A stretch of 32,000 bases of DNA from Trichodesmium erythraeum IMS101. Lineage in GTDB: Bacteria > Cyanobacteriota > Cyanobacteriia > Cyanobacteriales > Microcoleaceae. How positions within the stretch are numbered: position 1 is the first letter of the stretch; each line of letters begins with the position of its first letter. The translations under genes were made by a program, and so were the position numbers. The stretch lies in the NCBI RefSeq assembly GCF_000014265.1, contig NC_008312.1, positions 5,490,001 through 5,522,000 on the forward strand, written 5' to 3'. The notes beneath the pieces were generated by a model. It was not told the origin of the DNA. It saw only the letters and a list, made by a program, of their open reading frames with translations, and ran no database searches. Shown piece after piece: positions 8,570 to 31,549 of this stretch.

Positions 8570-8812
8570 CTATTGATCTAATTTTTTTTCTGGGATTTTA
8601 TAAGTAGTAACAAAAGCAGTTAACCAAGTTCCAGGAGCAAAAGCCATAGTAACTTTTGCCCCTTCATTTGTGTACTTAAGGAATAATAAAATACCATCTT
8701 TTATCTGTGCTTCATCTGCCTGAACATATTGTTCCTGATTTTCGACTATATCTTTAGTTACCCGAACATACCAATAGTAATTACCATAACTAACCTGTTC
8801 AGCATTAACCAC
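8570..8812 (-). CDS. Hypothetical small protein (80 aa)
   Basis: ORF only. It lies on the same strand as the pentapeptide gene, 171 bp downstream of it. No motif recognised. Confidence 0.35.
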   Translation of the reverse strand: MVNAEQVSYGNYYWYVRVTKDIVENQEQYVQADEAQIKDGILLFLKYTNEGAKVTMAFAPGTWLTAFVTTYKIPEKKLDQ

Positions 8813-8983
8813 TTAATTTTACTCCTACTTAACTACACTAACTAGGCAAATTGTAATTATCTATAGTGATTTTGTCAAGCTAAATTTACCAAATAATAAT
8901 TAAATAATTATGATCAAAAATTAAGAAAAAATCACCGATTTTTTAGTAGAATAAAAAAATTAAAAATCAAGAACTTCAATAAT

Positions 8984-9541
8984 TTATTCATCAAAAATAG
9001 CATTAGTTAAATCTGCATTCTCAAAAGATGTTTTTGATAACTTTTCTAAATCAAAAACAACTTGAAAAAACAAAATAAGACCCAATCCTAAAATAACTCC
9101 TGAACCCAAAAATAAAAACAATCCTTTGACTTTACTTCCTGACAAAAAATAGACAATACCACTAGAACCAATAGTAGCAACAACCCCAGCCAAAATAGCA
9201 GCAATAATCTCATTTTTAGTATTAGTAATAGCAATAGCCACAGCCCCAGTCCCTATCAAAGCAGTAACCCCAGGCATTTCACCAGCAATAAAACTAGCAA
9301 AAGCACTAGTAAGAGTAACAGCGATCGCCGCTCCAGCACAACAGAAAATCAAAGTCCAAACTTTGCTCCTACTTTGCCCAATTCTGGCACCTCGAAAATT
9401 AGTCCCATAGAGGATAGCATCCTGAAAATTGCAACCTCTCAAGTCAGAACCGCTAAAATTAGCCCCTGTCAGGTCTTGGCCTTGAAAATCACGATGTCGT
9501 AGGTCTTGGCCAGAAAAATTTAAAGGAAATAGTTGATTCAT
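8984..9541 (-). CDS. Pentapeptide-repeat protein with a hydrophobic membrane region
   Basis: The N-terminal 55 aa show clear A(D/N)LXX periodicity (QDLRHRDFQGQDLTGANFSGSDLRGCNFQDAILYGTNFRGARI). About 100 aa of Gly/Ala/Ile-rich hydrophobic segments follow (at least 3 predicted helices). The C-terminal tail is again pentapeptide-like (FENADLTNAIF). Confidence 0.8.
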   Translation of the reverse strand: MNQLFPLNFSGQDLRHRDFQGQDLTGANFSGSDLRGCNFQDAILYGTNFRGARIGQSRSKVWTLIFCCAGAAIAVTLTSAFASFIAGEMPGVTALIGTGAVAIAITNTKNEIIAAILAGVVATIGSSGIVYFLSGSKVKGLFLFLGSGVILGLGLILFFQVVFDLEKLSKTSFENADLTNAIFDE

Positions 9542-10174
9542 GGTATTTGATCAGTAAGAAACAATTAAATATTGGAGTAGGTCAAGATTGAGTTATTAAT
9601 AATTAATAGTAAACTCAAGTTGTATTTTCCCAGCTTAAAAGGAAAAAAATCACGAATAAACAAAAGATAAAATAATTATTTTTAAGAATACAAATTCACA
9701 AAAAAAATCAGTTTATAAATTCGCTTCCTTTCAGTTTTTCAAAGACCATACAAATATTAAATAGGCTGTTAAATTTTAAGTTCCTATGCAAAATTAATTT
9801 TACATTTTTTAGAGAGTAGGGAGTAGGGAAAATATGATTTATTGTATATCAAAAATAATTTAGTCTATCTATCAATAAAAGGAGCTAATTTTTGACTCAT
9901 ATTTACCACTATTATTCACTTTATAAAAATATACTGATCGATCAATATATTTGCCAATAATTTGCACTTCAACAGGAGCTAATTTATGAATTTTTTGATA
10001 AATTATACTCCCTAAATATCCATAAATCCTCTAAAATTTTAGTGTATTTTGCTAGATAGCATTGAGATTAGTCGATTAAGATATATTCTCAAAATTCAGG
10101 ATAAGTTTTATACTCTATAAGTATTTTATTAGCTATTAAACAGATACCCCATTATTTTCAGCATATATTATGAT

Positions 10175-11224
10175 TCATTTGATGGCTTGTTTTCTAATTA
10201 ACCTTTGTGTACTAACTAGAGCCCTATTTAACTCATAATTACGTTGCTGAGGATTTTTTAGATAAGCTTGCTGTTCTTCTTCTATCATCTCTACATCTTG
10301 CTGTACTAAACCATCGAGTAGTTTTTGAGCTGAACCAAACAAAATTCTTTTTACAAATCGTCTAAACCATTCTGGGAGTTTATGTAAACGCCAAAAGGCT
10401 TGAAGGGATGTAAAGTGAATTAAATAAGCTTGAGTTTCTCTTTCATTAATTGGTAATAAAAGACAGTAAATTTTAAAATCTTTTCCGAGGTTAGAAACCC
10501 AATTTGGATATATATAACTAACATTTAATGGCTCAGGATGGAGTTGTCGTAAACTGGGAAATATTAATTGAGATATTGACCAAATTTTATCTATTTTATA
10601 ATAGCTTTGAGCTTCATAATAAGCATCTACTCGATGGTCATTTTCAGATAAGTCTATTAATTTTGCTGCTGCCCACGCTTGCCAATTTTGATGTAAATGT
10701 CCGTGGTACATGTCCATTAAATTTTCTACTAAATAGGAATAATGGGCGCGACATTTGATGACTGATATTGTGGCAATATAATTGAGATGGTCCCACTCAG
10801 GAATTTCTAAAGGAGAAATTAAATTTGCCAATGATTTATCTCCAGGGAATAGCCAGATGAAACCATGTAGCTCTTGAACCGGAAAAGTCCGAATTTGACA
10901 ACTAGGTAATTTTTGATTACTTGCTAAATAGGGTATATGAGAACATTTACCATTTGACTCAAAACGCCATCCATGATATGTGCATTCTAATTCATCCGCG
11001 ATCACACGACCAGAACTAAGTTTAACAAAACGATGAGGGCAAATATCTTCTAGACCATAGACTTTACCACTACAGCCCCGGTAAAGGACTATTGTTTGAT
11101 GCCAAAGGGTAATACTTAAAGGTTGAGATTGAAGCTCTATACTACGAGCAACAGCATACCAATGATTTTGGTTAATTCCCAAGTTACGGATACTATGGTA
11201 GAAAGTAATTTTAGAAGAAGACAT
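10175..11224 (-). CDS. Rieske [2Fe-2S] non-haem iron oxygenase (PAO/Tic55-like family)
   Basis: Rieske motif CPHR-x16-CTYHGW. A mononuclear-iron-like motif follows (ENLMDMYHGHLH). Size (349 aa) and layout fit the cyanobacterial PAO-like Rieske oxygenases. Confidence 0.85.
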   Translation of the reverse strand: MSSSKITFYHSIRNLGINQNHWYAVARSIELQSQPLSITLWHQTIVLYRGCSGKVYGLEDICPHRFVKLSSGRVIADELECTYHGWRFESNGKCSHIPYLASNQKLPSCQIRTFPVQELHGFIWLFPGDKSLANLISPLEIPEWDHLNYIATISVIKCRAHYSYLVENLMDMYHGHLHQNWQAWAAAKLIDLSENDHRVDAYYEAQSYYKIDKIWSISQLIFPSLRQLHPEPLNVSYIYPNWVSNLGKDFKIYCLLLPINERETQAYLIHFTSLQAFWRLHKLPEWFRRFVKRILFGSAQKLLDGLVQQDVEMIEEEQQAYLKNPQQRNYELNRALVSTQRLIRKQAIK

Positions 11225-11990
11225 AAGACTTGCGCATACACATTAAAAAAATTAATAACTGATGAGTATAATTTTGCTAGAAAATTTAACAATGATTAGG
11301 AACTCAAACTTTACAGCTTTATTGTCATAAATTATATCTTCTCTATTCCTGTAAAAATTTAGATGTAGCAGTGCGTAGTTTTTATAAACTCGAAAATATT
11401 GAGAGTTTATTATAGGTATTTTATCTGTTACAGAATTTAATTTTTACTATATAGCTGCCTTTTATCCCAGTGTTTCTGAAGTGAAGCCAAGAGAATACTG
11501 GCAAGAACTAGAAAAAAAATCAACAGGATATCAATATTTGGGAAGATAACTGTCAAGAAAACTTTCAACATAAGTATTTATTAGTAGTAGCAGAAATTAC
11601 AAGTTTTTCTGGAACAAATACAGCAGCAATATGTCTATAGCAATCAAAAATGAGATGTGAGAAAAAAAACTTTAGGAGTTGAGTCAGCTCAATCCCATTT
11701 TTGCCCTCGGTTTGGAGACTAAACCCCATAATTATAAAATATTAATATAAGCCCATATTGGTATATATAATTAAGCTGTGGAATCTAGCAGCAAAATTAA
11801 TTTATTTAAGATAAAGCAGTAAGCAACAAATTAGTAGTAAAATGTTAGTTAAATCAAGATTAACGTAAATATGCAAAAATTTGTTTACATAAAGCTCACT
11901 ATGATTATCAAGATTGGGAGGTAAATAGAAAGGTAAAAAAATAGAAAGTTAATATCAAAAATTATAAAATTTATTAAAATTCAAAAACAT

Positions 11991-13475
11991 ATGATTCAAC
12001 CTGAAAATATAGAAAATTCTAGTGACAAAGATATGAGTAATCACTCCTTAAATATAGCCACAGTTATTAAAGTATTTCAAGCAATTTATAGTGAGATTGT
12101 CTTAGATAAGTTACTATCTAAATTGATGAAAATTATCATGGAAAATACTGGTGCAGAAAAAGGTGTACTTTTTCTACTAACAAAAGGTGAACTAATCAAT
12201 AGAGCTGAAGCTAACTTAGATTCGGAAGCAGTAGTAGTTCAAGAGACTCAAATTCATGAATGTGAAGACTTACCACTAACAGTAATTAACTATGTGGAGC
12301 GATCGCGCCAAGATGTTGTATTAAGCAATGCTTTTGCTGAAGATAGCTTCACAACTGACCCCTATGTTGTCAAAGTTAAACTGAAATCTGTTTTATGTAC
12401 TCCTATTGTTAATAGAGGCCAACTTATAGGAGTTTTGTATTTGGAAAATAACCAAACTACAGGTGCATTTACTCCAGAATGTTGGGAAATATTAAGATTT
12501 TTATTATCTCAAGCAGCAGTTTCCTTAGAAAATGCAATGTTGCACAGTTCAGCAGAAGAAAAAATACAAGAAACAACCGAAGAATTAAACGAAAAAAATT
12601 TACAACTAGAGCAAACATTACAGGAGCTACAACGCACTAAATCTCAACTAATTAAAGGTGAAAAAATGTCAAGTTTAGGGCAGTTAGTTGCTGGAATAGC
12701 TCACGAAATTAATAACCCTGTCGGCTTTATTTATGGTAATATGTCCCCTGCCAATGAATATATTTCTGACTTACTAAATTTGATTAATTTATATCAAGAA
12801 CACTATCCTGAACCTGTAGACGAGATTCAAGATGAAATTGAAGATATGGACTTAGAATTTCTTATAGAAGACTTACAAAAACTTTTGAATTCTATTAAAT
12901 TTGGAGCCGAACGTATTCGAGATATTGTAATTTCCATCCGCAACTTCTCGCGCTTGGATGAAGCCAATATGAATCCTATAAATATCCATGAAAATATTGA
13001 CAGTACCATACTAATTTTAAATACTCGTATTAAAGAAAAATCAGATAAAAGTGAAATTAAAATAGTCAAAAATTATGGTAGCTTACCAGAAGTTATCTGT
13101 TACGTTTCGCAAATTAATCAAGTATTTATGAATTTACTAGCTAATGGAATTGATGCTTTAGAAACTATGCGAGAAAAAAAACAACAATTTGACCGTCAAC
13201 CCACTATTACAATTTCTACTGAAGTAACAGATTTAGAAACAGTAAAAATCAAAATTTATGACAATGGTAGTGGTATTAATTCTGAAGCATTATCTCAAAT
13301 ATTTGACCCATTTTTTACTACTAAACCAGTGGGAGTAGGTACAGGTTTAGGATTATCAATTAGCCATTCAATTGTAGTAGAAAAACATGGGGGTAATTTG
13401 AGTTGTGTTTCTGAAGTTGGAAAAGGTACAGAGTTCATAATTGAAATTCCTATTAAACCAGCATCTAGTAATTAG
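11991..13475 (+). CDS. Soluble GAF-domain sensor histidine kinase
   Basis: The N-terminal GAF-like region ends in GVLYLEN. A coiled-coil linker follows, then the H-box GIAHEINNP, N-box NLLANGIDA, G1 DNGSGI and G2 GTGLGLS. There is no hydrophobic segment and no adjacent response regulator. Confidence 0.9.
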   Translation: MIQPENIENSSDKDMSNHSLNIATVIKVFQAIYSEIVLDKLLSKLMKIIMENTGAEKGVLFLLTKGELINRAEANLDSEAVVVQETQIHECEDLPLTVINYVERSRQDVVLSNAFAEDSFTTDPYVVKVKLKSVLCTPIVNRGQLIGVLYLENNQTTGAFTPECWEILRFLLSQAAVSLENAMLHSSAEEKIQETTEELNEKNLQLEQTLQELQRTKSQLIKGEKMSSLGQLVAGIAHEINNPVGFIYGNMSPANEYISDLLNLINLYQEHYPEPVDEIQDEIEDMDLEFLIEDLQKLLNSIKFGAERIRDIVISIRNFSRLDEANMNPINIHENIDSTILILNTRIKEKSDKSEIKIVKNYGSLPEVICYVSQINQVFMNLLANGIDALETMREKKQQFDRQPTITISTEVTDLETVKIKIYDNGSGINSEALSQIFDPFFTTKPVGVGTGLGLSISHSIVVEKHGGNLSCVSEVGKGTEFIIEIPIKPASSN

Positions 13476-13931
13476 AGTTAATATCATCTGAGTGAAATTA
13501 AAATAGTCAAAAATTATGGTAGCTTACCAGAAGTTATCTGTTACGTTTCGCAAATTAATCAAGTATTTATGAATTTACTAGCTAATGGAATTGATGCTTT
13601 AGAAACTATGGGAGAAAAAAAACAACAATTTGACCGTCAACCCACTATTACAATTTCTACTGAAGTAACAGATTTAGAAACAGTAAAAATCAAAATTTAT
13701 GACAATGGTAGTGGTATTAATTCTGAAGCATTATCTCAAATATTTGACCCATTTTTTACTACTAAACCAGTGGGAGTAGGTACAGGTTTAGGATTATCAA
13801 TTAGCCATTCAATTGTAGTAGAAAAACATGGGGGTAATTTGAGTTGTGTTTCTGAAGTTGGAAAAGGTACAGAGTTCATAATTGAAATTCCTATTAAACC
13901 AGCATCTAGTAATTAGAGTTAATATCATCTG
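13050..13931 (+). repeat. Perfect head-to-tail tandem duplication, 2 x 441 bp, covering the 3' end of the histidine kinase gene
   Basis: 13050-13490 and 13491-13931 are identical except c13170 versus g13611 (Arg to Gly). Each copy carries the last 142 codons, the stop codon and 15 nt of 3' flank. Confidence 0.95.
13569..13916 (+). pseudogene. Orphan HATPase_c fragment created by the tandem duplication
   Basis: The 115-aa ORF is identical, bar one residue, to the C-terminus of the kinase. It starts at an internal Met (MNLLANGIDA) and lacks the H-box/DHp domain. Confidence 0.6.
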
Positions 13932-18120: not shown

Positions 18121-19496
18121 CGGGACTTTAGCAAATTTCAAGCCCAAACAAACCCTAAACTCTCTTTATGAGCGGTAAATACCTCGATGTTTTCATCTAA
18201 CCACTCAACAAAACGATAAGATATTGCGGTACAAAATGCTTCTAAAGTATCAGTAAACGTATTTAATGGTTTGTTAGCCCAACGCCTTCTTATACCTCCT
18301 GTTAACTGATGCCAGATAATAAATGTATAAGCACAAAATACTAAAATAAAATGCCTTTTAAGGCTGATTTTATCTCTGACTTGATATTCTCTTAATCCTA
18401 ACCATCCTTTGGCTTCCCTGTAGAAAACTTCCACCCAATTTCTTTGAGAATAAGTAGAATATATCCACTCAGGAGTTACATATTTGTCTTCTCTATTAGT
18501 GATATAATAGTTAATATCAGTGGCCTCAGAAAAACTTTTAGCATTCATAACGATAGCTATAGTTTTTTGACCTGACATCCTAGATATTTCTACTTCTAAT
18601 GTAGCTACCCAAACTTCTCTAGCATTTTTTGTACTTAGTTGAACTAAGTTGAAAGCTTTCTGAGGTATACTTTCTGCCAGCTTGTCTAATCTAATTTCCT
18701 CTTTAATGTCATCTTGTTTTTTAATGATGACTTTTCGATTTTTAGCTAATCCTCCTATATAAGTTAAACTTCTTTTCTCTAGTTGATTTAAGAATGATGT
18801 ATTGTTACCATAGCCAAATTTCAATTAACACAATTTCTGGTTGGTGTCCTCTGGACAAACATTGATCTACTAGAGACATTGCACTCGTCTGGTTTCTTGA
18901 CAAATTCTGGGTCTTTTTTTCCTTTTGGAAAAGAATCAGCTTTCTGATACAAAGCTATGTCTAAAGGTAGACTTTTAACTCCATCATAAAGATGAGTTGT
19001 CACCACGACTACACCATTATCTGTTTTTCCTATTTCTCCTATATATTGCCGCCCTACTCCTGCAGTAAAATTACCACTTTTTCTGTGGCCTGAATCGTCT
19101 ATAATTAAAGCAATAGGATCGAGAAGGTTTTGTTTGGCGACGTTCCCACATTACTTGAAGACGACGCTCATTCACAGCATCTACAGACCAATTTGCTCGA
19201 ACTAGAAAATGCCGTAATTTGTGGTACGTGTGACCTACAGTGTTGTTGGCAATTTGAGACAAGTTTTTTCGATCGCTTTCTCAAGAGTAATCCTCCTATA
19301 TATTCCCTAAACCCTGTTTTTTGGGCTTTTGTTTTAAAGACATTGTTAAAGCGATCGCACCATCGATGGAAACAAGAGGGCATGGCCACTGAAGTTGTTT
19401 CTTTCATCAAACTTTTCCCAGGCCAGTAATTAACGTAAAATACATATCAGGTATACATTATACCCTTTTTTTTACTATTTTTTCACTAAAGTCCCG
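18121..19496 (-). mobile_element. IS701-like insertion sequence, complete ends
   Basis: 11-bp terminal inverted repeats: CGGGACTTTAG at 18121-18131 and CTAAAGTCCCG at 19486-19496. A 4-bp direct repeat ATAG flanks both ends (18117-18120 and 19497-19500). Length is 1376 bp, and the transposase reading frames are on the minus strand. Confidence 0.8.
18138..19410 (-). pseudogene. IS701-family DDE transposase, disrupted by several frameshifts
   Basis: Four ORF pieces (19410-19168, 19262-19071, 19006-18821, 18824-18138) sit in frames 0/2/1/2. Together they spell the family pattern (ALIIDDSGHRKSGNFTAGVGRQYIGEIGKTDNGVVVVTTHLYDG...GYGNNTSFL...). At least three frame changes are needed. Confidence 0.75.
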
Positions 19497-19649: not shown

Positions 19650-20867
19650 TTACAACGATACTACCGGATTTGATATTAATTCTTCTAAAAAAGATTGACC
19701 AGCTTTTTCCAAATCAGAGTCAATAGCAAATGTCAAAGTACGCAATCTTACTTGACTTTCACCAACTAATTGATTAATATAATTAGTTAGTCTTTGAGGA
19801 TAAATCAAAATAGCTTCGTGACATTTTTTATAAGTTGCATAAGCTACCACTTGGTTAATATCATCTGTCGATGGTCTGCAATCCAACTTATATTTAGTAT
19901 CAAGAATATAAACAACCTTGCAAGTTTTTATTTCATAAATAACTAAATCAATTTTACAATAAATTTTATCATCAACAATTTCTACTTTTTCTTGTTCTTT
20001 AACTCTTAAATTTGAGGATAGATGCAATTTTAACCATTTAGCTACAAATTTTTCATAGAGTTTAGCCATATCTATTAAAAAAGGTAACATTGAGTAATTA
20101 CCCTGTTGATGACTAGCTCCAATATTATCCAAAAAAAATCGACATAAACCGTGTAAAACCTGATAATCTTCATTCAAACGATGATATTTTATATTCAGAC
20201 AATCACTAGATTTAAAAGGTTGTAAAGTTACCAAACCTTGCAAAATATGAAAAGCTCTTGTTACAGTTACAGCGACTTTTTCAGAACAAAAACTACTACG
20301 GCTAATGATAAACAAAGTCCAAGCCAAAATTTGATTATCAGGAATATTAGCAGTATGTTCTTGATAATCACATTTTAAACTAACACCCCAGGGTTTGTGC
20401 ATAACTTGCCGCATATTTAATCGTCCCCGAATATAAGTTAAATTTTCTGTTTTTGGCAGATAAGCACGATGAAAACCTTTTCGACCTCGCTCTAATATTT
20501 TTTGAGCCAGAATATTAACTAAACAGTTGTAAAATTCCTGTAGAGAATTACAGTTAACTAAACCATCTAAAAAACAAAAACTTCTGAGGTTGTAGGCATA
20601 TTCCAACATTCCAAATAGGTTATGAAGTGGTACCTTAGGTTTAAGAATGATGTGAAAATCCAGAGTTATGGGAATATAACCCACCCACCCTTGAGAAGTA
20701 AATTGCCATTTGTTGTTGGTTTTGGGAGTAGGAAATTCAACTTTAATTTTTTGACCTTTTTGATCGTATTCTTGCCATAATTTAGTAGGAATACTATAAT
20801 CAATTTTATCTGGTGAAAACTGGTAAGGTTGATATTCAGTGAGTTCGATGATTTGGGAAGATTTCAT
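19650..20867 (-). CDS. mcrC: McrC-family nuclease subunit of a McrBC-type (type IV) restriction system
   Basis: 405 aa, immediately downstream (63 nt) of the McrB-family gene. The C-terminal PD-(D/E)xK-like motif is IDLVIYE...YILDTKYK, matching the D...(D/E)-x-K core typical of McrC. The N-terminus is typical of the family (IELTEYQ). Confidence 0.85.
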   Translation of the reverse strand: MKSSQIIELTEYQPYQFSPDKIDYSIPTKLWQEYDQKGQKIKVEFPTPKTNNKWQFTSQGWVGYIPITLDFHIILKPKVPLHNLFGMLEYAYNLRSFCFLDGLVNCNSLQEFYNCLVNILAQKILERGRKGFHRAYLPKTENLTYIRGRLNMRQVMHKPWGVSLKCDYQEHTANIPDNQILAWTLFIISRSSFCSEKVAVTVTRAFHILQGLVTLQPFKSSDCLNIKYHRLNEDYQVLHGLCRFFLDNIGASHQQGNYSMLPFLIDMAKLYEKFVAKWLKLHLSSNLRVKEQEKVEIVDDKIYCKIDLVIYEIKTCKVVYILDTKYKLDCRPSTDDINQVVAYATYKKCHEAILIYPQRLTNYINQLVGESQVRLRTLTFAIDSDLEKAGQSFLEELISNPVVSL

Positions 20868-20930: not shown

Positions 20931-22550
20931 CTAACAAATTGTCTTTGACATCCGATGTTGAATTTTTTCCCACCGAAAATCATTGACTTTTTCTGGTTGA
21001 GCAAAGAAATATTCCTCTAAATATGGTTCAATTTCCATTTGCCAAATATCTGGAATTTCCTCTGCAATATTTTTTCGGAGAAAGAAGGAAACACCGACTT
21101 GATAGTTGGGGTCGTTTATTTCTTGGTTGACTGCTTCTAAAAGTTGAGTTAACCCCTCCACTGAAAAATTTGTTTCTATTTCCTTGTAGTATTGAAGCAA
21201 TATTTCATACTTAGGGGAGAGAGTGATGAAAGCAAAGCGACGACGAAGTGCATGGTCTACTAAAGCAATGGAGCGATCGGCAGTATTCATAGTGCCAATG
21301 ATGCGAACATTTTTAGGAATGCTGAATAATTCTGCACTACCAGCAAGGGGAATTTTGGCGTCGCGGTATTCCAGGAGGTACATAAGTTCGCCGAAAACTT
21401 GGGAGAGGTTAGCCCGGTTAATTTCATCAATGATGAGTACGCAAATATCTTGATTAAGTGCTGCTTTTTGACAAAATTGTAGGAAGCGACCGGGAACAAC
21501 AGGGTAGGTGAGTTTACCATCTTGGCTTTGGGGTCGAATACCTTGAATAAAGTCTTCGTAGGTATAAGCAGAATGAAATTGGATCAGTTCCCAGAAGCCG
21601 TCACCTCGACTGATTAAGTGTTGGGCGAGTTTTTGAGAGAGGAAAGTTTTGCCTGTACCAGGTGGACCTTGGAAAATAGCCTGTTTTTTACGGTTGATAG
21701 CGCGTATCCATTGGGTGAGTTCTGTTTCTGTGAAGTTTGTTTCTTGGGAGCATTGAGTTAGAGTGTATTCTGGTTGTAAATTAATCACATTTATTTTTTG
21801 ATCTTGATCTTGATTAGTTTTATAGATATTGTCTGTACTCTTTATATTTTCACTAATAAAATTGTATTTTTTTACATCTACCAACCAATAACAAAACATA
21901 TCAAACAAATCATCATCTCGCATTGCAGGTATATTTTGCTTCTGCATTTCTTCAGCTAATTCTAAAATTAGATTATGGCCAGTGAGATTAATATATGGGT
22001 ATTCAGTTAGCTTTTGAGTATGTTTTGTGTTACTTAAATAATTAATTACTTTTCTGGATTTATTATTAATTAAAAGAAAATCATCTGGTTTGACTGCATT
22101 CAGAATAGGTGTTATTATTCCTATTTTAAATTCTCTAGAATATGGTAATTTAGAAAAATTTTTACAAGCTACTAAAAATTTATGATAATCTGTAATACAG
22201 GAAGTTACAAAATTATAAATTGCTCTAGTAATAACAGACCAATCTTCTTGCTTTTCCAACCATTGAAACCATTCACTTAAATCAGTATTGCTAGATTCAC
22301 TCAAGTAAATCCATACACCCTTTTGTCGATTACTGGGAGTATTAGTATGAGGTAAAAGTTTCCATATAATCAACTCTGTTATGTCTTCCCCTGCCTTAGC
22401 AGCAGTAGTTATTTCTTCAAAATTCCGGCGACCTTGTTGACGTTGTTTTTCATAAGATGCTCTATGATTTAATCCTTCTAAGCTATAGGGATATGAGTCA
22501 GAAAATTCTTGAAAAAGTTGAACAAATAAAGTTAGTTGTTGAATTGCCAT
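20931..22550 (-). CDS. mcrB: McrB-family AAA+ GTPase with an unassigned ~270-aa N-terminal domain
   Basis: Walker A FQGPPGTGKTF (about 21645-21671). Walker B and family motif LIIDEINRANLSQVFGELMYLLE. McrB signature MNxxDRS present as GTMNTADRS, followed by RRRF. The first ~270 aa carry no motif I can name. Confidence 0.9.
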   Translation of the reverse strand: MAIQQLTLFVQLFQEFSDSYPYSLEGLNHRASYEKQRQQGRRNFEEITTAAKAGEDITELIIWKLLPHTNTPSNRQKGVWIYLSESSNTDLSEWFQWLEKQEDWSVITRAIYNFVTSCITDYHKFLVACKNFSKLPYSREFKIGIITPILNAVKPDDFLLINNKSRKVINYLSNTKHTQKLTEYPYINLTGHNLILELAEEMQKQNIPAMRDDDLFDMFCYWLVDVKKYNFISENIKSTDNIYKTNQDQDQKINVINLQPEYTLTQCSQETNFTETELTQWIRAINRKKQAIFQGPPGTGKTFLSQKLAQHLISRGDGFWELIQFHSAYTYEDFIQGIRPQSQDGKLTYPVVPGRFLQFCQKAALNQDICVLIIDEINRANLSQVFGELMYLLEYRDAKIPLAGSAELFSIPKNVRIIGTMNTADRSIALVDHALRRRFAFITLSPKYEILLQYYKEIETNFSVEGLTQLLEAVNQEINDPNYQVGVSFFLRKNIAEEIPDIWQMEIEPYLEEYFFAQPEKVNDFRWEKIQHRMSKTIC

Positions 22551-22694: not shown

Positions 22695-23135
22695 CTATTC
22701 AAAATCATAGTCTACTAATTTCTTAATAATTTCAAATTCATTAGGTTTCAAGTAACGATAGCTTTGAGGTGGCCTAAAAGTATTCAATTCTTGTCTTAAT
22801 TGTTCTAATTCTACTGGATTACTAAAAGTTTTAATTTTTTGGAAAAATATTCCAATCCCCAAATCTAATCCTGAATAATAATCGTAAAATTCTTCCTGGG
22901 TAATTCCTGCTTTTTCTTCGACTTCATCCCAAAGGTAAGAGATATTTTTTTTGATAATTTTTTTGACTTTAAAGTAACCAACTACAGCTTTTTTAGGAGA
23001 TGAAACATAAACTATAACTAAATCATCTTTATCTAAAGAAGGAAAAACACGACGTAATTCAACTTTTTTTGTTTTCTGGTAGAAAATTTTATCAGCATAT
23101 TCTGGCTTTATAGATAAAAGAACTGTATTTGGCAT
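22695..23135 (-). CDS. Stand-alone ASCH (PUA-like fold) domain protein
   Basis: 146 aa. The N-terminal pattern LLSIKPEYADKIFYQKTKKVELRR followed by VIVYVSSPKKAVVGYFKV matches the ASCH/COG4933-type consensus as I remember it. The start is 16 nt after the stop of the upstream gene, with an AGGA about 10 nt upstream. Confidence 0.65.
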   Translation of the reverse strand: MPNTVLLSIKPEYADKIFYQKTKKVELRRVFPSLDKDDLVIVYVSSPKKAVVGYFKVKKIIKKNISYLWDEVEEKAGITQEEFYDYYSGLDLGIGIFFQKIKTFSNPVELEQLRQELNTFRPPQSYRYLKPNEFEIIKKLVDYDFE

Positions 23136-23151
23136 ATTTGAATAATCCTAA

Positions 23152-25257
23152 TTAATTTTTGTTGATTTGATCATATATTTTAGCAAATTGATCTGGTGTT
23201 ATTTTAAAAGGTCCTTGAACAGTTATCTGTTTTTTTAGTATATCTTGAAGTTCTTTTAAAGTTATAGTATTAGTGAACACTTGAGTATCACTAAATCGAA
23301 CAGCCATTATATCTTCATTAGGATCATTGTTGGTGATTTTTATTAAATCTTCTAATTTATATATACCTAGATTACGAAATTGTCTATATAATTTTTCTGG
23401 TTTGTCTACTATGACTTCATCTAATCGAGAACAAGCTTTAATTACTTTTGTTGTCCCGTATGGAAAAGATTTATCATTGCTGACATACCATATAATCCTA
23501 CCAATTACACCAGGTTTTAAACCGCCCTTAGAACGATAAAATACAAGTTCACGTTTAAGTGCTAATTCAGTTTTAGAGCCAAATAACCAATAATTAGCTA
23601 ACTCTTCATCAAATAAATCTTTTGCCCAAAATGGTTTAATAGGAATAATCCATGTAGGCACATTAGCATCAATTATTTTTGCAGGCCACAGAAAACGTTC
23701 TATTTCTATTGTAGTTTGTGAATTTTTCGTTGATTCAGATTGACTAATAGTTTTTGCAAATTTTATACAAAAATTTGATTGATATTCTAATTCAAATTTA
23801 GCTAAATCATTGAGACGCTTAGATAGATTAGATGCTGTTTCTGCTACGGGAATATTTACCTTTATATATTCTCCCTTATTCTTAATAAAAGCATCTTCTT
23901 GAATAGCTTTAACAACTATTTCTTCTAAATAGGGGTCAGTGATTCTTGTAAAATATCTGTTCTCCTGAGCTGAAATTATTATGGCATGAAAAATTAAATA
24001 ACGTGCAAGTGTTCCACCTAAAGAATTATCTTTAACTCTTAGTAATGGAATTTCTAATTCAGAAGATTTTGATTTATTATAAACAATTAAACCGACTGGT
24101 TGATTTTCTTCCATTACAAGCTGATGACATATAAACTTAGAACAATTACTAATAAAACTGCGAATTTTTTGCTGAAAATATTCTTTTTTCTCACCATTTT
24201 TTTGACTCCAAAAATAATCAGTCAGCCCCTTGATTTGATTGATCGGTACAGATTGAAGATTGATTTGATTTGAACCCGCTAATCGTACAGGTTGATATGT
24301 AGTGCTTCTACGAATTTCATCTAGGTTAATAATGAGGTTACTAGGATTAGTTATTTCTAGCTTAAAAATTTTATAGATTTCATCGGTTAAATTTAAAATA
24401 TGTGAATCACGAGTTACAAAAATTAGGCATTCAGAAGCAAGTGTCATAGCTAGCTGACGTATTTGTGATTGATCAAGTTTGAGATTACTTCCTTCCATAA
24501 ACTCTATAAAAGAGTTTAAAAAAACCTCAAAATTTTGCTGATTATATGGTAATTTTGTAAACTTTTCTGCATTGAGACGTTGATATTTTCTATCTTGGGA
24601 ATCAGTAATATTATTAATAGCATTAAAAATTTCATCAGTGACACATAACTCTAAGTCATCTTGTAGCCAATCAGCAAGTAAAGACTCTGATTCTTCACTT
24701 TTAAAACTATCATTTTCAGACAAATCAAAGAAAACATTTATATCAATAATTGCACATAGTTTAGAATTGAGCTTTTCGGTAGCATTAACAGAAAATAAAT
24801 TGGGATGACCATGATCTAGCCACCAAACTGTTAAGGGTTTTCCTTCCTTACTTTTTCCAGGCTTTTCATTTAAGGGAACAAAGCCTAACTTAGACCACAT
24901 TTCGTCTAATCCATAATCGCGACGGCATTTTAACTTAATACCATAAAAATCTTGATGCCTTTGACTTAAATAATTTACTAGTGTCCTAGTCAAACCCCTA
25001 CCGCGGGATGATTCAGCAACACATAAATGAACTATTACAAGATGATTACTTCGACGAACCTTTCGGTACATCAGATAACCAATAAAATTTTCTTTTGGAT
25101 CTAAAGCTATAATAATTTGGCCACGTTTTGCATAATCAAAAAAAGTATCGTAGGATAAATGACCTAGGGTTTTTGTATTAGCATCGCCCAATTTAATAAC
25201 AGCTTGTAAATGGGGAGATTTTTCGTCAATTTCTATAGTTTTTATTTTTTCTGTCAT
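23152..25257 (-). CDS. Multidomain protein: GNAT acetyltransferase, PIN-like nuclease, second GNAT-like region, C-terminal ASCH-like module
   Basis: 701-aa ORF. In aa ~60-135, IVHLCVAESSRGRGLTRTLVNYL resembles the GNAT motif A acetyl-CoA site, followed by WSKLGF. In aa ~168-300, CAIIDINVFFDL, VTDEI and LIFVTRDSHI give PIN-like acidic residue spacing. In aa ~385-450, GGTLARYLIFHAI looks like a degenerate second GNAT. In aa ~520-690, IIPIKPFWAKDLF...GRIIWYVS...LKELQDIL...ITPDQFAKI parallels the downstream ASCH protein motif by motif. Confidence 0.7.
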   Translation of the reverse strand: MTEKIKTIEIDEKSPHLQAVIKLGDANTKTLGHLSYDTFFDYAKRGQIIIALDPKENFIGYLMYRKVRRSNHLVIVHLCVAESSRGRGLTRTLVNYLSQRHQDFYGIKLKCRRDYGLDEMWSKLGFVPLNEKPGKSKEGKPLTVWWLDHGHPNLFSVNATEKLNSKLCAIIDINVFFDLSENDSFKSEESESLLADWLQDDLELCVTDEIFNAINNITDSQDRKYQRLNAEKFTKLPYNQQNFEVFLNSFIEFMEGSNLKLDQSQIRQLAMTLASECLIFVTRDSHILNLTDEIYKIFKLEITNPSNLIINLDEIRRSTTYQPVRLAGSNQINLQSVPINQIKGLTDYFWSQKNGEKKEYFQQKIRSFISNCSKFICHQLVMEENQPVGLIVYNKSKSSELEIPLLRVKDNSLGGTLARYLIFHAIIISAQENRYFTRITDPYLEEIVVKAIQEDAFIKNKGEYIKVNIPVAETASNLSKRLNDLAKFELEYQSNFCIKFAKTISQSESTKNSQTTIEIERFLWPAKIIDANVPTWIIPIKPFWAKDLFDEELANYWLFGSKTELALKRELVFYRSKGGLKPGVIGRIIWYVSNDKSFPYGTTKVIKACSRLDEVIVDKPEKLYRQFRNLGIYKLEDLIKITNNDPNEDIMAVRFSDTQVFTNTITLKELQDILKKQITVQGPFKITPDQFAKIYDQINKN

Positions 25258-25787: not shown

Positions 25788-28700
25788 ATGGTTGAAGCAA
25801 AATCCTATAAAGAGACCGTAAACCTGCCCCAGACTAACTTTAATATGAGGGCTAACTCAGTCACCAGGGAACCAGAACTACAAAAGTTTTGGGCACAAGA
25901 ACAAATCTATGAACGTCTTTCTCAGACCAACCCAGGGGAAATCTTCACCCTACATGATGGCCCACCTTATGCTAATGGCAACCTACACATTGGCCATGCC
26001 TTGAATAAAATCCTTAAAGACATTATCAACCGCTACCAAATCCTCCAAGGGCGAAAAGTTCGTTATGTTCCTGGTTGGGACTGCCACGGTTTACCCATAG
26101 AATTGAAAGTTATTCAAAATATTAAATCAGCAGAAAGGGCAAAACTCACACCCATAGAATTACGTCGCAAAGCTAGAGACTTTGCTCTCGAAACTATAGA
26201 CAAACAGCGTGAATCATTCAAACGTTATGGAGTTTGGGGAGACTGGGAACATCCCTACATGACTCTCTCTCCAGAATATGAAGCTGCTCAAATTGGGGTA
26301 TTTGGTAAAATGGTTTTGAAAGGCTACATTTATCGTGGTCTCAAACCTGTACATTGGAGTCCGAGTTCTAAAACTGCTCTTGCAGAAGCAGAACTGGAAT
26401 ATCCCGAAGGTCACAAGTCTCGGAGTATCTATGCTGCTTTTAAAATCACTAACTTGGCAAAAGCAGTTGAAAAGTCTCTCGAATCTTATCTAGAAAAACT
26501 CTGGGTGGCCATCTGGACTACAACACCTTGGACTATTCCTGGGAATTTGGCAGTTAGCGTTAACCCAGACCTTAATTATGCTGTTGTCAAACCTGATGCT
26601 GACTATGCAATGGGAAAAGACAAATTATTTATAGTTGCAGCAGAAGCAGTTGAACGTTTATCAGCAACTCTGGGCACAACTTTAACACCTGTAGCGACGG
26701 TTAAAGGTGAAGACTTAGAAAACTGCACTTACCAACACCCACTGTTTGACCGGGAAAGTAAAATTGTTATTGGTGGGGACTATGTTACTACTGAGTCAGG
26801 TACGGGTTTAGTTCATACTGCTCCCGGTCACGGTCAGGAAGACTATATCGTAGGGCAACGTTATAGTTTATCAATTTTGTCCCCTGTGGATGGCAATGGG
26901 AAATTTACTGCTGAAGCCGGAGAGTTTACGGGGTTAAGTGTTTTGGCAGAAGGGAATATTGCTGTTATTGAAGCACTGCAAAATGTTAATTCTCTATTGA
27001 AAGAGGAACCCTACGAACATAAATATCCCTATGATTGGCGCACTAAAAAACCTACTATTTTCCGAGCAACTGAACAATGGTTTGCTTCTGTTGAAGGTTT
27101 CCGCAGTGAAGCACTTAAGGCGATCGCTGAAGTTAACTGGATACCTGCTCAAGGAGAAAACCGCATTACTCCAATGGTGAACGATCGCTCTGACTGGTGT
27201 ATTTCTCGACAAAGAAGTTGGGGTGTACCTATTCCTGTATTTTATGACGAAAAGACTGGGGAACCTTTGCTAACTGAGGAAACTGTTGCTCATGTGCAAA
27301 AAATTATTGCTGAAAAAGGTTCTGATGCTTGGTGGGAAATGTCGGTGGAGGAACTTTTACCAGAAACCTATCGCCAAGATGCTGAGAAGTACCGCAAAGG
27401 AACGGATACCATGGATGTCTGGTTTGACTCTGGTTCATCTTGGGCGGCAGTTGCTCAACAAAGGGAAGGGTTAAGATATCCAGTTGATATATATTTGGAA
27501 GGTTCTGACCAACATCGCGGTTGGTTTCAGTCAAGTTTGCTGACTAGTATTGCTACTAATGGTGTGGCACCATATCAAACTGTTTTGACTCACGGTTTTG
27601 TACTTGACGAGAATGGTCGGAAGATGAGTAAGTCTCTGGGAAATGTGGTAGACCCGGTAATAGTTATTGAAGGTGGCAAAAATCAAAAACAAGAACCTGC
27701 TTATGGTGCAGATATTTTGCGTTTGTGGGTTTCTTCTGTAGATTATTCTTCTGATGTACCCCTGGGTAAGAATATTCTCAAGCAAATAGCAGATATTTAT
27801 CGCAAAATTAGAAATACGGCGCGGTTTTTGTTGGGAAATATCCATGATTTTGATCCGGCAAAAGATGCTGTTGCTTATGAGGAAATGCCAGAACTAGATC
27901 GTTATATGTTGCACCGGATTACAGAGGTGTTTGCTGAAGTCAAAGATGGTTTTGATAAATTTCAGTATTTCCGCTTTTTCCAAACAATTCAAAATTTCTG
28001 TGTGGTTGACTTATCTAACTTTTATTTGGATATTGCTAAAGATCGACTTTATATTAGTGCGACTGATGCTTTCAGACGTCGCAGTTGTCAGACAGTCTTA
28101 GTTGTCGCTGTAGAAAATTTGGCAAAAGCGATCGCTCCAGTTTTACCCCATATGGCAGAAGATATTTGGCAAAATCTTCCTTATCCGACTCCCTGCAAAT
28201 CTGTATTTGAGTCTGGATGGGTGAAATTAGAGGAAAAATGGCATAACCCAGAGTTAGTTAAGTTATGGGAAGAGTTACGAAAAACTCGCACTGAAGTTAA
28301 CAAAGTGTTGGAAAAAGCGCGGGCAGAAAAAGCAATTGGTTCGCCTTTAGAAGCTAAGGTATTGTTGTATGTAAAAGATACTAAATTCCGGGAGCAAATA
28401 CAAGATTTTAATCCCATTGCTCAAGGAGAAAAAAGTAAGTCTGAATTCTGGGAAGCTAAAATCGAAATTGAACCAGAAAAAACAGAAGATAAAACTACTA
28501 ATAACCAACAAAAGTTTCCTGATATTTTTTATACTTATAAAAATTTTTTATCAGATTTTTCTAATACTGTGAGTAAATTACTTAGTGGGTATAAAAAAGC
28601 TTTAGGAGGGGTGTTTTTGATGATTATATTACTGTTATCAATACAACTAACAGTAACGGTAGTAAAAACAATTGAAAAACTGCCTCTAGTAAATTACATC

Positions 28701-29246
28701 ATGATATTAGTGGGAATTATCTACACAATTCGCTTTGTTACTCATAATTTGTTATTTGCTAAAAGTCGCCAAAGTTGGTTAGATAAAATAAAATTGACTG
28801 CTGAAGATATATTAGGTAAAGAGGCTTTATCTACTCAAAAGAAAAATTTGGCAGACAATACAGTTAAACAGTCAGCAACTTTAGTATATCCAGAAGGAGT
28901 TTTTGTGCCCCCCCAAAAAGTCGAATTTACCCCAGAACCACAAGTAGTAGAAACAGAAACTTTACCTCAACAACCTAATAATGTTAAAGCCATAATTCCT
29001 TCTGGTAATGGGGTTGATGAATTACGTTATCTATTTATTACTTCTCAAGTAGAATTATTAGAATCTCCAGAATGTTTAAGTAATCTCGAATATAAGTCTA
29101 TATTAGATTCTTTAGGTATAGGAGTAGTCAAAGCAGATGGTGAGAAATGCGAACGCTGTTGGAATTATTCTACTCATGTTGGTGACTTCTCAGAAGATCC
29201 CACAATTTGTGAACGTTGTGTTGTTGCTTTAGCAGGAGAATTTTAA
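25788..29246 (+). CDS. ileS: Isoleucyl-tRNA synthetase with an internal membrane-anchor (CAAD-type) insertion
   Basis: Class I signatures HIGH ([13 protein letters not shown]) and KMSKS ([10 protein letters not shown]). The N-terminus is typical of IleRS ([17 protein letters not shown]). The C-terminal zinc knuckles are CERCWNY...CERC. At 1152 aa it is about 190 aa longer than ordinary bacterial IleRS. Confidence 0.95.
28420..29000 (+). other. CAAD-like insertion (two transmembrane helices) within ileS
   Basis: This low-complexity, A/T-rich stretch interrupts the IleRS sequence between ...[10 protein letters not shown] and [19 protein letters not shown]. It contains two hydrophobic helices ([22 protein letters not shown] and [24 protein letters not shown]) followed by [20 protein letters not shown]. 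This matches the CAAD/CURT1 pattern as I remember it. Boundaries are approximate. Confidence 0.7.
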
Positions 29247-29295: not shown

Positions 29296-30441
29296 TAGAC
29301 ATCTCCAAAATAGAAAATAAGATAAGATTGTCATGTTCATTTATAATTTTATTTAGGTAGCTATACCAATGAATAAAACTTTAGAGTACATTCATAATTA
29401 TCCGAAAGAAACAAAAAGAATTATAGGGATTACTTATGAACAGCTAACACAATTAATAGAAAATGCAATTATCAAAGAATCAGAAAATTTCCAGGTAATT
29501 GCCGAGAAAGAAATAAGTTTAATTAAACCAGGTGGAGGCAGAAAAAAGACTTTAACTAAAACAGAATAAATATTTTTAACGCTATATTATTTACATCATA
29601 TACCAACTTTTCAATTATTAGGAATAAATTTTGGAGTTAGTGAATCAACAGCCAATAATATATTCCATTACTGGATAAATATTTTACAAGATTTATTACC
29701 AGCTAGTTTATTAGAACAAGTAAAAAAAAAGAAGATGAATGAGAAGGGGTAAAAGAAGCGTTAATGGAATTAGAATTAATAGTAGATAGCTCAGAACAAA
29801 GTAGAGAAAGACCAAAAGAATCTGAAAAACCAGAAAAATATTATTCAGGAAAAAAGAAAAATAATACCTTTAAAAATCAAATAATAACGACACCAAAAGG
29901 AACAGAAATAGTGGATGTAATTATCGGAGAAAGGGGACCATTAAGTGATATAAATTTATTAAACAAACAACGGGAAAATTTTAAGGATAATCAATATTTT
30001 CAAGGGGATAAGGCAGATCAAGGAGCAGAAAGAACAAGTACACCAAAAAAGAAACCAAGAAAAAAAGAAATGCCAGAAGAAATAAAAGAAAAAAATCAAC
30101 AAAAAGCCCAAAAAAGAATATTCGTAGAACATGTAATTAGATTACTAAAAATATTTGGAATTGCGAGAGAAAGATTTAGATTAAAAGAGAAAAGTTATGA
30201 GAAAGTAATAATGGTAGTATGTGGATTAGTGAAATTAAGAATAGGAGCATTAATATTAGTATAAAAAGAAGATAATCAATTAAGAGAATAAAGTGAAAAT
30301 GGGGGGAAATAAATGTTGAATTAGTAAGAGAAAATATCTCAAAGATTTATGATTGCGTATTTTAGGACCAAAGATGCTTGATATGGCAACTAGGCTAAGA
30401 TCAAGTCAAGGAAAGGCTTTGTTAATTTTTGGAGATGTCTA
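29296..30441 (+). mobile_element. IS5/Harbinger-type (DDE_Tnp_4-like) insertion sequence, copy 1
   Basis: Perfect terminal inverted repeats: TAGACATCTCCAAAA (29296-29310) and TTTTGGAGATGTCTA (30427-30441). The outer TA may be a 2-bp target duplication. The transposase lies inside. Confidence 0.75.
29369..30264 (+). pseudogene. DDE_Tnp_4-type transposase, broken by an in-frame TAA and a frameshift
   Basis: The N-terminal HTH part (29369-29569) ends in TAA, and the same frame then continues (IFLTLYYLHHIPTFQLLGINFGVSESTANNIF). The frame changes near the A9 run at 29721-29729. The catalytic part (29764-30264) carries LIVDSSEQ, YYSGKKK, GDKADQG and RIFVEHVIRLLK. Confidence 0.7.
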
Positions 30442-30658
30442 TTTTATAACGCTCAAAAAAATATCATGGTTTTTTTGTTGGAGGGAGAGCGATGGCCTAT
30501 TTCATATTTCTGTGGTATAATTGTTATATGTAGGGGGTTTATGGCATTCGCCCGGAGAATGTATTGAGTCAGCAATGGTTGTTGTGTTGGTCCTAGTTTT
30601 TGACTATTTTTTTTTCATCTCAGAAGCGATGGCCTATTCCATATTTCTGTGGCATAAT

Positions 30659-31549
30659 TAGACCTCTCCAAAATAAAAATTAAGGTAAAATTGTAGTAGC
30701 CAATTATATATACTCTGTTTCCAAATGAATAATGTATTAGAATATATTTATAACCATCCAAAAGAAATAAAAAGAATTATTGGTACTACATATGAACAGC
30801 TAATAAAATTAATAGAAAACCCTCAAAAAGTTGAAAAAAAAAGACTGGGGAGCGCCAGCCAAGAAAAAAGGTTAATCAAGGCAGGAGGAGGAAGAAAAAA
30901 GTCTTTAAGCAAGACAGAAGAGATAATGTTGACCTTATATTATTTGTATCATGTACCAACATTTCAGGGACTAGGAGCAATATTTGGAGTTAGCTCATCA
31001 ACAGCAAATAATATTTTTCAGGCTTTGGATAGATATTTTGAGGGAATTATTACCATCTAGTTTACTAGAGGAATTCTCGGGAAAAGAAAACGAATATTTA
31101 TGGATAAAAGAGGCTTTGACATAAAGAGAATTGATAGTTGATAGTACAGAGCAGGATAGGGAAAAGCAAAAAAAATGATGATAAACAGAAAAAGTATTAT
31201 TCAGGAAAGCCAAAAAGTAATAAGTTTAAAAATCAGATAGTAATCACAGAAAAGGCAGAAAAAATTGTAGATATAATAGGAGGATAAAGAAGTCCAGAAA
31301 GTGATATAAAGTTATTCAAAAAAACCACAAAAAATTTGGGTAGAGAACCAAAATTTCAAAGAGATAAAGGATATCAAGATGGTCAAAAATTAACACGCTA
31401 AACAAAAAAAAGAATCCATAAAATGTCAGAAGAAGTAAAAAAATAGAATCAAAAAAAAAAGCTCAAAAAATAATATTTGTAGAACATATAATAAGACTGA
31501 TAAAGATATTTAGAGTGGCACGAAAAAGATTGAGATTGAAAGAGAGTAA
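30659..31549 (+). mobile_element. IS5/Harbinger-type element, copy 2; heavily decayed and 3'-truncated by an IS insertion
   Basis: The left end TAGACCTCTCCAAAA (30659-) differs from copy 1 by one base. ORF 30725-31060 is homologous to the HTH part of copy 1. Downstream sequence is recognisably homologous (LIVDSTEQ) but riddled with stops. Homology ends at 31549, where the IS701-like end begins. Confidence 0.65.

Follow-up and report, generated by a model that had tools for sequence, protein, structure and literature searches.

A GNAT–PIN–GNAT–ASCH fusion protein and its ASCH partner are genetically coupled to short-form McrBC in Trichodesmium erythraeum and other cyanobacteria

The locus

A cassette of four genes on one strand lies within a 32,000-nucleotide stretch of Trichodesmium erythraeum IMS101 DNA (contig NC_008312.1, positions 5,490,001 to 5,522,000; the whole stretch is referred to here as the window). 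Its first member, gene A (23152–25257, minus strand), is an intact open reading frame (ORF) for a 701-residue protein. This protein is a true fusion of a GNAT-family acetyltransferase (GNAT1), a PIN nuclease, a degenerate second acetyltransferase fold (GNAT2) and, behind a helical linker, an ASCH-type domain of the ASCH/PUA-like kind. Gene B (22695–23135, minus strand), a standalone ASCH protein of 146 residues resembling ZmASCH, lies 16 nucleotides downstream. The pair is followed by a McrB-like AAA+ GTPase in a short form of 539 residues (20931–22550, minus strand) and by a McrC-like nuclease subunit of 405 residues (19650–20867, minus strand). Genes A and B are inherited here with McrBC as one unit, co-evolve with it as tightly as McrB does with McrC, and are probably co-expressed with it in this genome.

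The McrB-like protein matches Pfam AAA_5 (E value, 4e-22) and the NCBIfam McrB profile (5e-48, below the equivalog cut-off), and its translation shows the Walker A motif GPPGTGKT along with DEINR and NTAD. The McrC-like protein matches the Pfam McrBC family PF10117 above its cut-off (4.7e-40) and carries a readable D...D-T-K-Y-K nuclease motif. The cassette, together with the isoleucyl-tRNA synthetase region next to it, is bracketed by fragments of DDE transposases or insertion-sequence genes at 18138–18824 (minus strand) and 29764–31060 (plus strand).

Architecture of the gene A protein

Relatives of gene A are numerous. One relative in public data is 99% identical and likewise 701 residues long. 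Trichodesmium, Okeania, Moorena, Microcoleus, Nostoc, Scytonema, Calothrix and other genera yielded about 120 full-length relatives with 44–87% identity, whose sole annotation is ‘GNAT family N-acetyltransferase’. Identity among related cyanobacteria is 40–55%, and in an alignment of 40 sequences the mean column identity is 58% across the whole length. An exhaustive profile search yields 1,324 representatives clustered at 50% identity (E ≤ 1e-30), the best 150 of which are nearly all about 700 residues long. The architecture, which a preliminary description of the window sequence had called unusual, is thus no oddity: with this many representatives the family is large, its PIN-GNAT-PUA core with an ASCH neighbor has been described before, and PADLOC lists the pair as PDC-M11.

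An AlphaFold2 model built on the 40-sequence alignment has a mean predicted local distance difference test score (pLDDT) of 81.8. Its low-confidence breaks divide the protein into five pieces, namely residues 1–150, 165–317, 333–470, a helical segment at 475–522, and 530–701. The PADLOC profile PDC-M11A aligns with residues 500–672 through profile positions 297–458 (E 1.8e-9), and 39 of 40 family members match it. The motif strings quoted in the preliminary description are all present in the translation, and the domain order it proposed, GNAT-PIN-GNAT-ASCH, is recovered by Pfam for GNAT1, by PIN_3 on the isolated domain, by Foldseek for GNAT2 and by the ZmASCH match for the C-terminus. Both the domain fusion and the paralogy with the neighboring gene far exceed what chance would produce. 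Residue conservation was counted over 118 homologs, and long-range comparisons used two homologs with 28–30% identity to gene A, one from Prevotella and one from a contig of 54% GC (locus L158).

GNAT1 (residues 1–150; 24808–25257, minus strand) is detected by Pfam Acetyltransf_1 at residues 29–121 (E 7.1e-10). The loop that would hold the pyrophosphate of acetyl-coenzyme A (CoA), R/Q85-x-x-G88-x-A/T90, is canonical, with R/Q85 found in 115, G88 in 94 and A/T90 in 117 of the 118 homologs. Seven further residues (H77, C79, C111, R112, D114, W121 and F126) are invariant in this set, and the loop together with H77, C79, C111, R112, D114 and W121 is still invariant in the two long-range homologs. 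GNAT1 is the best-conserved module of the protein and appears catalytic. Its nearest solved relatives, retrieved with the family profile from PDB sequences, are weakly similar small-molecule and N-terminal acetyltransferases.

The PIN domain (residues 165–317; 24307–24763, minus strand) is not reported in a Pfam scan of the whole protein. Taken in isolation, residues 170–285 match PF13470 (PIN_3) with an E value of 7.9e-4 over profile positions 3–114 of 115, and PIN_3 is matched by 15 of 17 and 22 of 40 family members in two sets, with a best E value of 3.7e-9. The order of secondary-structure elements in the model is that of the PIN fold. All four acidic residues of the domain (D172, E209, D284 and D313) are present in the window copy; D172 is kept in 113 and E209 in 110 of the homologs, while position 313 is Asp in 104 and Glu in 9. 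Distant homologs largely keep these residues, position 284 being mostly Asp. In the L158 homolog the PDC-M11A match begins at PIN, with profile positions 2–159 aligned to the PIN region. A profile of the region found nothing meaningful among PDB sequences.

GNAT2 (residues 333–470; 23848–24259, minus strand) was described preliminarily as degenerate, and rightly so: it is recognized as a GNAT fold by Foldseek only, and its cofactor loop is degenerate. A separate AlphaFold model of residues 160–472, which excludes GNAT1, reaches a pLDDT of 86.4 and finds only acetyltransferases among the matches listed by Foldseek, in the PDB and the viral library alike. Among the PDB matches are 3fix, 3exn and SpeG, with E values near 2e-6, a probability of 1.00 and template-modeling (TM) scores to the target of up to 0.69. 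The topology of the model follows the GNAT order β1-α1-α2-β2-β3-β4-α3-β5-α4-β6-β7. Conservation across the family is poor overall, and only E356, F361, R407, L444 and F457 are invariant over the long range. A GNAT2 profile search of PDB sequences came back empty, and HHalign finds no similarity between GNAT2 and GNAT1 (probability 0.1), so that a recent internal duplication can be rejected. GNAT2 is probably a non-catalytic fold.

Searches of PDB sequences with the whole protein (phmmer and profile searches) gave no meaningful match. The gene A, PIN and GNAT2 queries did hit a nitroreductase, a designed repeat protein and a ribonucleotide reductase, but these hits were discarded as chance. A phage collection contains no homolog that could be found, and a phage origin of gene A is therefore unsupported; the sole IMG/VR match is L158, a contig of 54% GC that carries a transposase.

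The C-terminal domain and gene B

The C-terminal ASCH/PUA-like domain of gene A (residues 530–701; 23152–23668, minus strand) is identified by Foldseek, HHalign and PDC-M11A. With the full gene A model as the Foldseek query, ZmASCH (5gus) is matched with an E value of 1.5e-7 and a TM score to the target of 0.79, and the domain shares the ZmASCH fold. Pfam EVE gives no match on gene A; the C-terminal domain scores ASCH-like. Gene B reaches the threshold of Pfam ASCH, matches PADLOC PDC-M11B (E 5e-36) and, in NCBIfam, resembles the ASCH portion of a family of L22 fusions.

The preliminary description had taken the C-terminal module and the downstream gene for paralogs. BLASTP finds no alignment between the C-terminal 199 residues of gene A and gene B, and profile methods are therefore needed to see the relationship. 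HHalign joins the two family alignments with 97.1% probability (E 6.3e-11) over 136 columns and reproduces exactly the motif pairings that had been listed, setting IIPIKPFWAKDLF against LLSIKPEYADKIF, WYVS against VYVSS, and the C-terminal helices against each other. In addition, the C-terminus of 7 of 40 gene A homologs matches the PADLOC ASCH profile PDC-M11B. By these profile comparisons the C-terminal domain of gene A is a true remote paralog of gene B.

The gene B family profile retrieves ZmASCH (5gus) from the PDB at full length (residues 7–143, E 8.7e-23). YqfB, another ASCH protein, whose structure we take to be in the PDB, does not appear among the matches of this profile up to E ≤ 10. 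ZmASCH (PDB 5GUQ/5GUS) has a basic cleft, equipped with a base pocket, that binds single-stranded DNA and RNA; the protein also cleaves single-stranded RNA weakly, and Tyr47, Lys53 and Ser128 are important here (Kim et al., 2017; PMC5615036). These three residues correspond to Y43, K49 and S125 of gene B, and the cleft residues Arg32, Tyr90 and Gln127 to R28, Y86 and Q124. Across the gene B family Y43 never changes, K49 reaches at least 90% conservation and S125 agrees with the consensus. ZmASCH was studied alone. The preliminary description was also broadly right in its notion of an effector whose action is linked to the binding of nucleic acid.

Linkage and co-evolution with McrBC

Eighty cyanobacterial loci with gene A were recovered. 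ASCH follows gene A directly in 77 of the 78 loci with sufficient flank, and McrB and McrC lie downstream of the pair in 57 of the 68 whose flank reaches 4.5 kb or more. Median gaps between A and B, B and McrB, and McrB and McrC are 38, 89 and 30 nucleotides; in the window, B and McrB are 144 nucleotides apart. Different genera share the order of the four genes even where identity has fallen to about 40%. Matrices of pairwise identity, computed for each of the four proteins over 52 complete cassettes, correlate with r = 0.82–0.90; the value for A and McrB (0.886) compares with 0.901 for the obligate pair of McrB and McrC. This McrB/McrC cassette is the main context that the preliminary description, partly supported overall, had missed.

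The cassette is also found on a plasmid. In Calothrix sp. PCC 6303, the mobilizable MOBP plasmid pCAL6303.01 (locus L159) carries all four genes at 3838–11542. Immediately before them come the two genes of a type II restriction–modification (R-M) system, a DNA cytosine methyltransferase and an endonuclease of the Eco29kI family, and a recombinase is nearby. Since the cassette adjoins the methyltransferase, McrBC on this plasmid presumably tolerates the adjoining methylation.

The N-terminal domain of McrB

In the window McrB, residues 1–235 (21846–22550, minus strand) are joined directly to the AAA+ module. This N-terminal domain is conserved, with the motifs LFQEF..SYPYT, TPILNAL.PD.FLLIN..S..VINYF and DDLFDMFCHWLV. 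Residues 1–250 have no Pfam match and belong to no known reader type (DUF3578, EVE, YTH), and HHalign finds no similarity between the domain and the ASCH/PUA, GNAT or PIN profiles.

A first homolog search with this domain returned 12 fragmentary matches and was uninformative. A reciprocal test, in which metagenome contigs were scanned with the domain, recovered 77 loci. An ASCH gene lies upstream of short-form McrB in 14 of 17 assessable loci, as against 1 of 20 in which McrB carries an insert between the N-terminal domain and AAA+; the loci behind this difference (Fisher p = 1.5e-6) are not phylogenetically independent. ‘Long’ McrB occurs with an upstream pair just once (L145, 6001–8741). There the N-terminal and AAA+ matches lie about 1 kb apart and the query coordinates are broken (q9–179, then q141–535), which looks like a gene insertion or disruption and not like an extra domain.

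One insert, in L117, is a bona fide EVE domain (PF01878, E 1.7e-11), so that EVE and AAA+ follow the N-terminal domain. The commonest insert is a 150-residue ‘YWKIAPGE’ domain, followed by DUF2461 and AAA+ in L097, L103 and others. Because HHalign comparisons of this insert with ASCH and EVE were negative, it is not claimed as a reader. In L129, L140 and L149 the N-terminal domain is followed by a nuclease-like C-terminus of about 200 residues without AAA+. The N-terminal domain thus behaves as a mobile module, and the pattern as a whole suggests, though it does not prove, that the upstream A/B pair and a fused reader domain are alternatives.

Distant homologs and loci without McrBC

The L158 homolog, with 29% identity, keeps GNAT1, PIN, the PDC-M11A match and the ASCH neighbor, and has no McrBC. 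In Prevotella sp. oral taxon 299 F0039 (L160, 707–9474), an apparent operon begins with an Eco57I/MmeI-like R-M enzyme of type IIG, continues with an SMC/ABC ATPase and an HNH_5 nuclease, which are perhaps a Septu-like pair, and ends with a GNAT-PIN-GNAT-PUA homolog and an ASCH gene that overlap by 19 nucleotides. Genes for a VapE-like primase and a relaxase lie downstream on this mobilizable element, and the region is unannotated in the record.

No consistent alternative partner was found among the neighbors in loci that lack McrBC. Two of these loci (L063, 6395–7921, and L070, 6385–7893) have a thymidylate-synthase-like protein with PterinBD-DUF4346 directly upstream of the GNAT-PIN gene and on the same strand; a link of this neighbor to base modification is conceivable, with two loci as its extent.

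Relation to known systems

Genes A and B are a cyanobacterial version of a predicted conflict or defense pair, ‘(PIN)-GNAT-PUA + ASCH’, which PADLOC carries as the two-gene candidate PDC-M11. The ‘(PIN)-GNAT-EVE’ fusion proteins are encoded in operons that nearly always include a separate ASCH protein and often adjoin type I R-M systems (Bell, Wolf and Koonin, 2020; BMC Biol 18:159; PMC7641849). The same family had been described by Iyer et al. (2013; NAR 41:7635), who, as cited in that study, proposed acetylation of DNA bases. Bell and co-workers suggested that the systems are toxin–antitoxin-like and target modified nucleic acids, for which aminoacyl-tRNA is one possibility, and noted that none of these modules had been characterized so far (PMC7641849).

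The order of PIN, GNAT and a C-terminal PUA-superfamily domain, the nearly obligatory ASCH gene alongside, and the placement beside restriction systems and in mobile DNA are common to gene A and to that class. Gene A differs by its added N-terminal GNAT, by the degeneracy of the internal GNAT that defines the family, by a C-terminal domain that is ASCH-like instead of Pfam EVE, and by coupling to McrBC, a type IV system, where type I R-M was reported. Cyanobacteria are not mentioned in the 2020 study, and McrBC is not linked there to the PIN-GNAT-EVE class (PMC7641849); a later census of McrBC mentions neither GNAT, ASCH nor cyanobacteria (Bell et al., 2024; eLife RP94800). New with respect to this literature are the extra, conserved and catalytic-looking N-terminal GNAT combined with a degenerate internal one, and the conserved, co-evolving coupling of the pair to short-form McrBC in cyanobacteria.

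The preliminary description had framed the protein as a tRNA-acetylating GNAT toxin joined to a PIN toxin. Gene A does share the GNAT and PIN folds of TacT, AtaT, KacT, ItaT and VapC toxins, a small adjoining gene that may be an antagonist, and a possible action on tRNA. However, those toxins are single-domain proteins of about 130–175 residues with ribbon–helix–helix (RHH) or VapB antitoxins, whereas gene A has four domains and an ASCH paralog as its partner. The framing found no specific support, as GNAT1 has no sequence relation to solved TacT/AtaT-type toxins and no RHH (DUF1778) or VapB-type antitoxin gene lies beside gene A; its neighbors are the ASCH gene and, divergently upstream, isoleucyl-tRNA synthetase, with no small partner ORF on that side.

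Compared with McrBC systems in which McrB carries a fused reader (EVE-, YTH- or DUF3578-McrB), the window cassette has the same canonical McrB and McrC. Its McrB differs from the EVE-fused relatives in having no fused PUA-type reader; two ASCH-type domains are encoded upstream instead.

A possible function and its alternatives

Domain identities, paralogy, residue conservation, linkage and co-evolution are observed, and we infer from them a substrate, a chemistry, a role for B and a functional link to McrBC. Tentatively, and quite possibly, A/B is a defense or conflict effector that works alongside McrBC by acylation through GNAT1 and cleavage by PIN of a substrate docked on ASCH, under the restraint of B. 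The C-terminal ASCH/PUA-like domain would dock the enzyme on single-stranded or base-flipped nucleic acid, with RNA such as tRNA as the favored substrate and DNA also possible. GNAT1 would then move an acyl group from acyl-CoA onto an amino group of the bound substrate, and the PIN domain would cut it, GNAT2 serving as a degenerate scaffold or substrate-binding fold. Gene B may bind the same type of ligand, or A itself, and so restrain or tune the enzyme in the manner of an antitoxin. With McrBC, the pair would act in defense, and its most plausible place there is that of a second-line effector, a back-up beside restriction. A precedent is PrrC, the anticodon nuclease embedded in the type I R-M locus EcoprrI, which provides a second line of defense. 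The proposed role of A/B resembles it as an RNA-directed effector within a restriction locus, and the analogy is functional only, as PrrC is an ABC-ATPase/HEPN protein without homology to gene A. A generic second-line role is favored over one tied to a single modification because the pair accompanies McrBC, type IIG with ATPase/HNH, and type I systems.

Several observations weigh against such an effector. The pair stands without McrBC, among unrelated and often housekeeping genes, in 9 of the 68 cyanobacterial loci; McrBC is therefore not required for A/B, and the linkage could reflect a successful mobile cassette instead of a biochemical partnership. The third acidic position of PIN, in the motif T282-x-D284, is Asp in 52 and Asn in 43 of the 118 homologs, and nuclease activity may therefore be dispensable or lost in many members. 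No PIN structure appears among the matches listed in three Foldseek searches, where GNAT matches fill the lists, and no structure of a TacT/AtaT-type toxin was matched when the GNAT1 family profile was compared with all PDB sequences. A scan for promoters and terminators gave counts no higher than the shuffled expectation and was uninformative. Targeted literature searches found no experimental work on the gene A family, and PDC-M11 itself is only a candidate.

The loci without McrBC would suit an autonomous toxin–antitoxin or addiction module, with A as the toxin by way of GNAT, PIN or both and the ASCH protein as its antitoxin, hitch-hiking with defense islands and mobile elements or stabilizing them. 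Such a module would not interact functionally with McrBC and might play no part in defense. The two-gene unit occurs by itself in L158 as well as in the 9 loci, PADLOC models it as a two-gene candidate, and the family has been read as toxin–antitoxin systems before (Bell, Wolf and Koonin, 2020; PMC7641849). Transposase remnants flank the window copy, other copies sit on plasmids and mobilizable elements, and A and B are tightly spaced here or overlap, as in Prevotella. However, a four-gene order kept to about 40% identity, with co-evolution like that of an obligate pair, is unusual for unrelated neighbors. In place of a DNA-binding repressor, a paralog of one of the toxin’s own domains would have to serve as antitoxin, and a ‘toxin’ of 701 residues and four domains is far from the classical type II toxins. 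On balance this account is rather unlikely.

The same co-evolution can be turned to a different end, in which A and B are integral subunits of McrBC that read and write modified bases on invading DNA and replace the reader otherwise fused to McrB. GNAT1 would then acetylate a base amino group, for instance on a hypermodified phage base, and so mark the DNA or remove a protective charge, allowing McrBC to bind and cleave it. The equal co-evolution of A–McrB and McrB–McrC, the company kept with short McrB (14 loci with the pair, 3 without) as opposed to McrB with inserts (1 with, 19 without) and the one insert that is a bona fide EVE reader are in line with this, as are the view of ASCH/PUA domains in the literature as readers of modified DNA in defense contexts and the DNA-base acetylation attributed to Iyer et al. 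(2013) as cited in PMC7641849. The ‘YWKIAPGE’ insert, however, is not demonstrably PUA-like, so that the argument from domain displacement rests on one verified case, and the loci of the short-McrB association are phylogenetically non-independent. McrB moreover keeps its own conserved N-terminal domain, which elsewhere is fused to nuclease-like domains and could itself be the reader. The occurrence of the pair without McrBC counts against integral subunits, the PIN domain and the activity of ZmASCH on single-stranded RNA point to RNA, and the presence of the pair beside restriction systems that attack unmodified DNA, in Prevotella and in the 2020 survey (PMC7641849), is left unexplained. Integral subunits of this kind are unlikely. 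In a further version, A and B would be working subunits of McrBC immunity: GNAT1 would acetylate an amino group of a specific RNA or of a non-canonical base in incoming DNA, the ASCH domains would read the base or its mark, and the acetylation would license cleavage by McrBC or strip a protective hypermodification. This version is more doubtful still. If true, acetylation-dependent immunity by McrBC would amount to an enzymatic ‘modify, then restrict’ step, and we know of no restriction system that has one.

A role outside conflict altogether, with A as a housekeeping writer of acetylated nucleosides on tRNA or rRNA and B as an RNA-binding helper or a YqfB-like eraser, is very improbable. It has in its favor that PUA and ASCH domains classically occur on RNA-modifying enzymes, that the ASCH protein YqfB hydrolyzes N4-acylcytidine, that gene B matches the ASCH part of the L22-fusion family, and that some loci without McrBC have housekeeping neighbors. 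The patchy distribution tied to mobile elements and plasmids, the tight linkage with restriction modules and the PIN nuclease all speak against it, and B groups with ZmASCH while YqfB goes undetected in the profile search of the PDB. Identity of 40–55% among related cyanobacteria likewise suggests the fast evolution typical of conflict genes. The second-line effector restrained by gene B is the preferred, if tentative, reading.

Other features of the window

Isoleucyl-tRNA synthetase (25788–29246, plus strand) is encoded by an unusually long ORF of 1152 residues. A stretch of lower GC content at 28001–29000 (0.34 versus 0.41 upstream) encodes a hydrophobic segment, which presumably resembles the CAAD membrane-anchoring insertion of some cyanobacterial aminoacyl-tRNA synthetases.

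At the other end of the window, a STAND NTPase of 2194 residues (1398–7982, plus strand) combines a NACHT module and about 24 HEAT repeats with an N-terminal helical domain of the NNH2 type, and may be an Avs-like immune sensor. Long antisense ORFs inside its gene (3668–4600 and 5027–6538) are probably artefacts. A GAF-HisKA-HATPase histidine kinase (11991–13475, plus strand) is followed by an ORF of 115 residues (13569–13916, plus strand) that consists of a second HATPase_c only; either a split gene or the duplication of a fragment may account for it.

Significance

The ‘(PIN)-GNAT-PUA + ASCH’ pair is among the larger predicted conflict systems, and the Trichodesmium locus presents it in a well-defined, testable form: a catalytic-looking GNAT with few invariant residues, a PIN domain with all four acids, a partner homologous to ZmASCH, and a genetically coupled McrBC. 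The locus will not surprise specialists in the genomics of defense systems; it offers a clean entry to an uncharacterized system and to what bacterial ASCH domains do. Even as a mere hitch-hiking toxin–antitoxin module, the pair would, once recognized, correct the labels ‘GNAT family N-acetyltransferase’ and ‘hypothetical protein’ that these genes bear today. If the coupling is functional, restriction enzymes can recruit acetyltransferase and reader functions on separate proteins, or can be accompanied, as by PrrC, by a back-up effector directed at RNA. In both cases bacterial ASCH domains would gain a biochemical role, and nucleic-acid acetylation in immunity could come to light.

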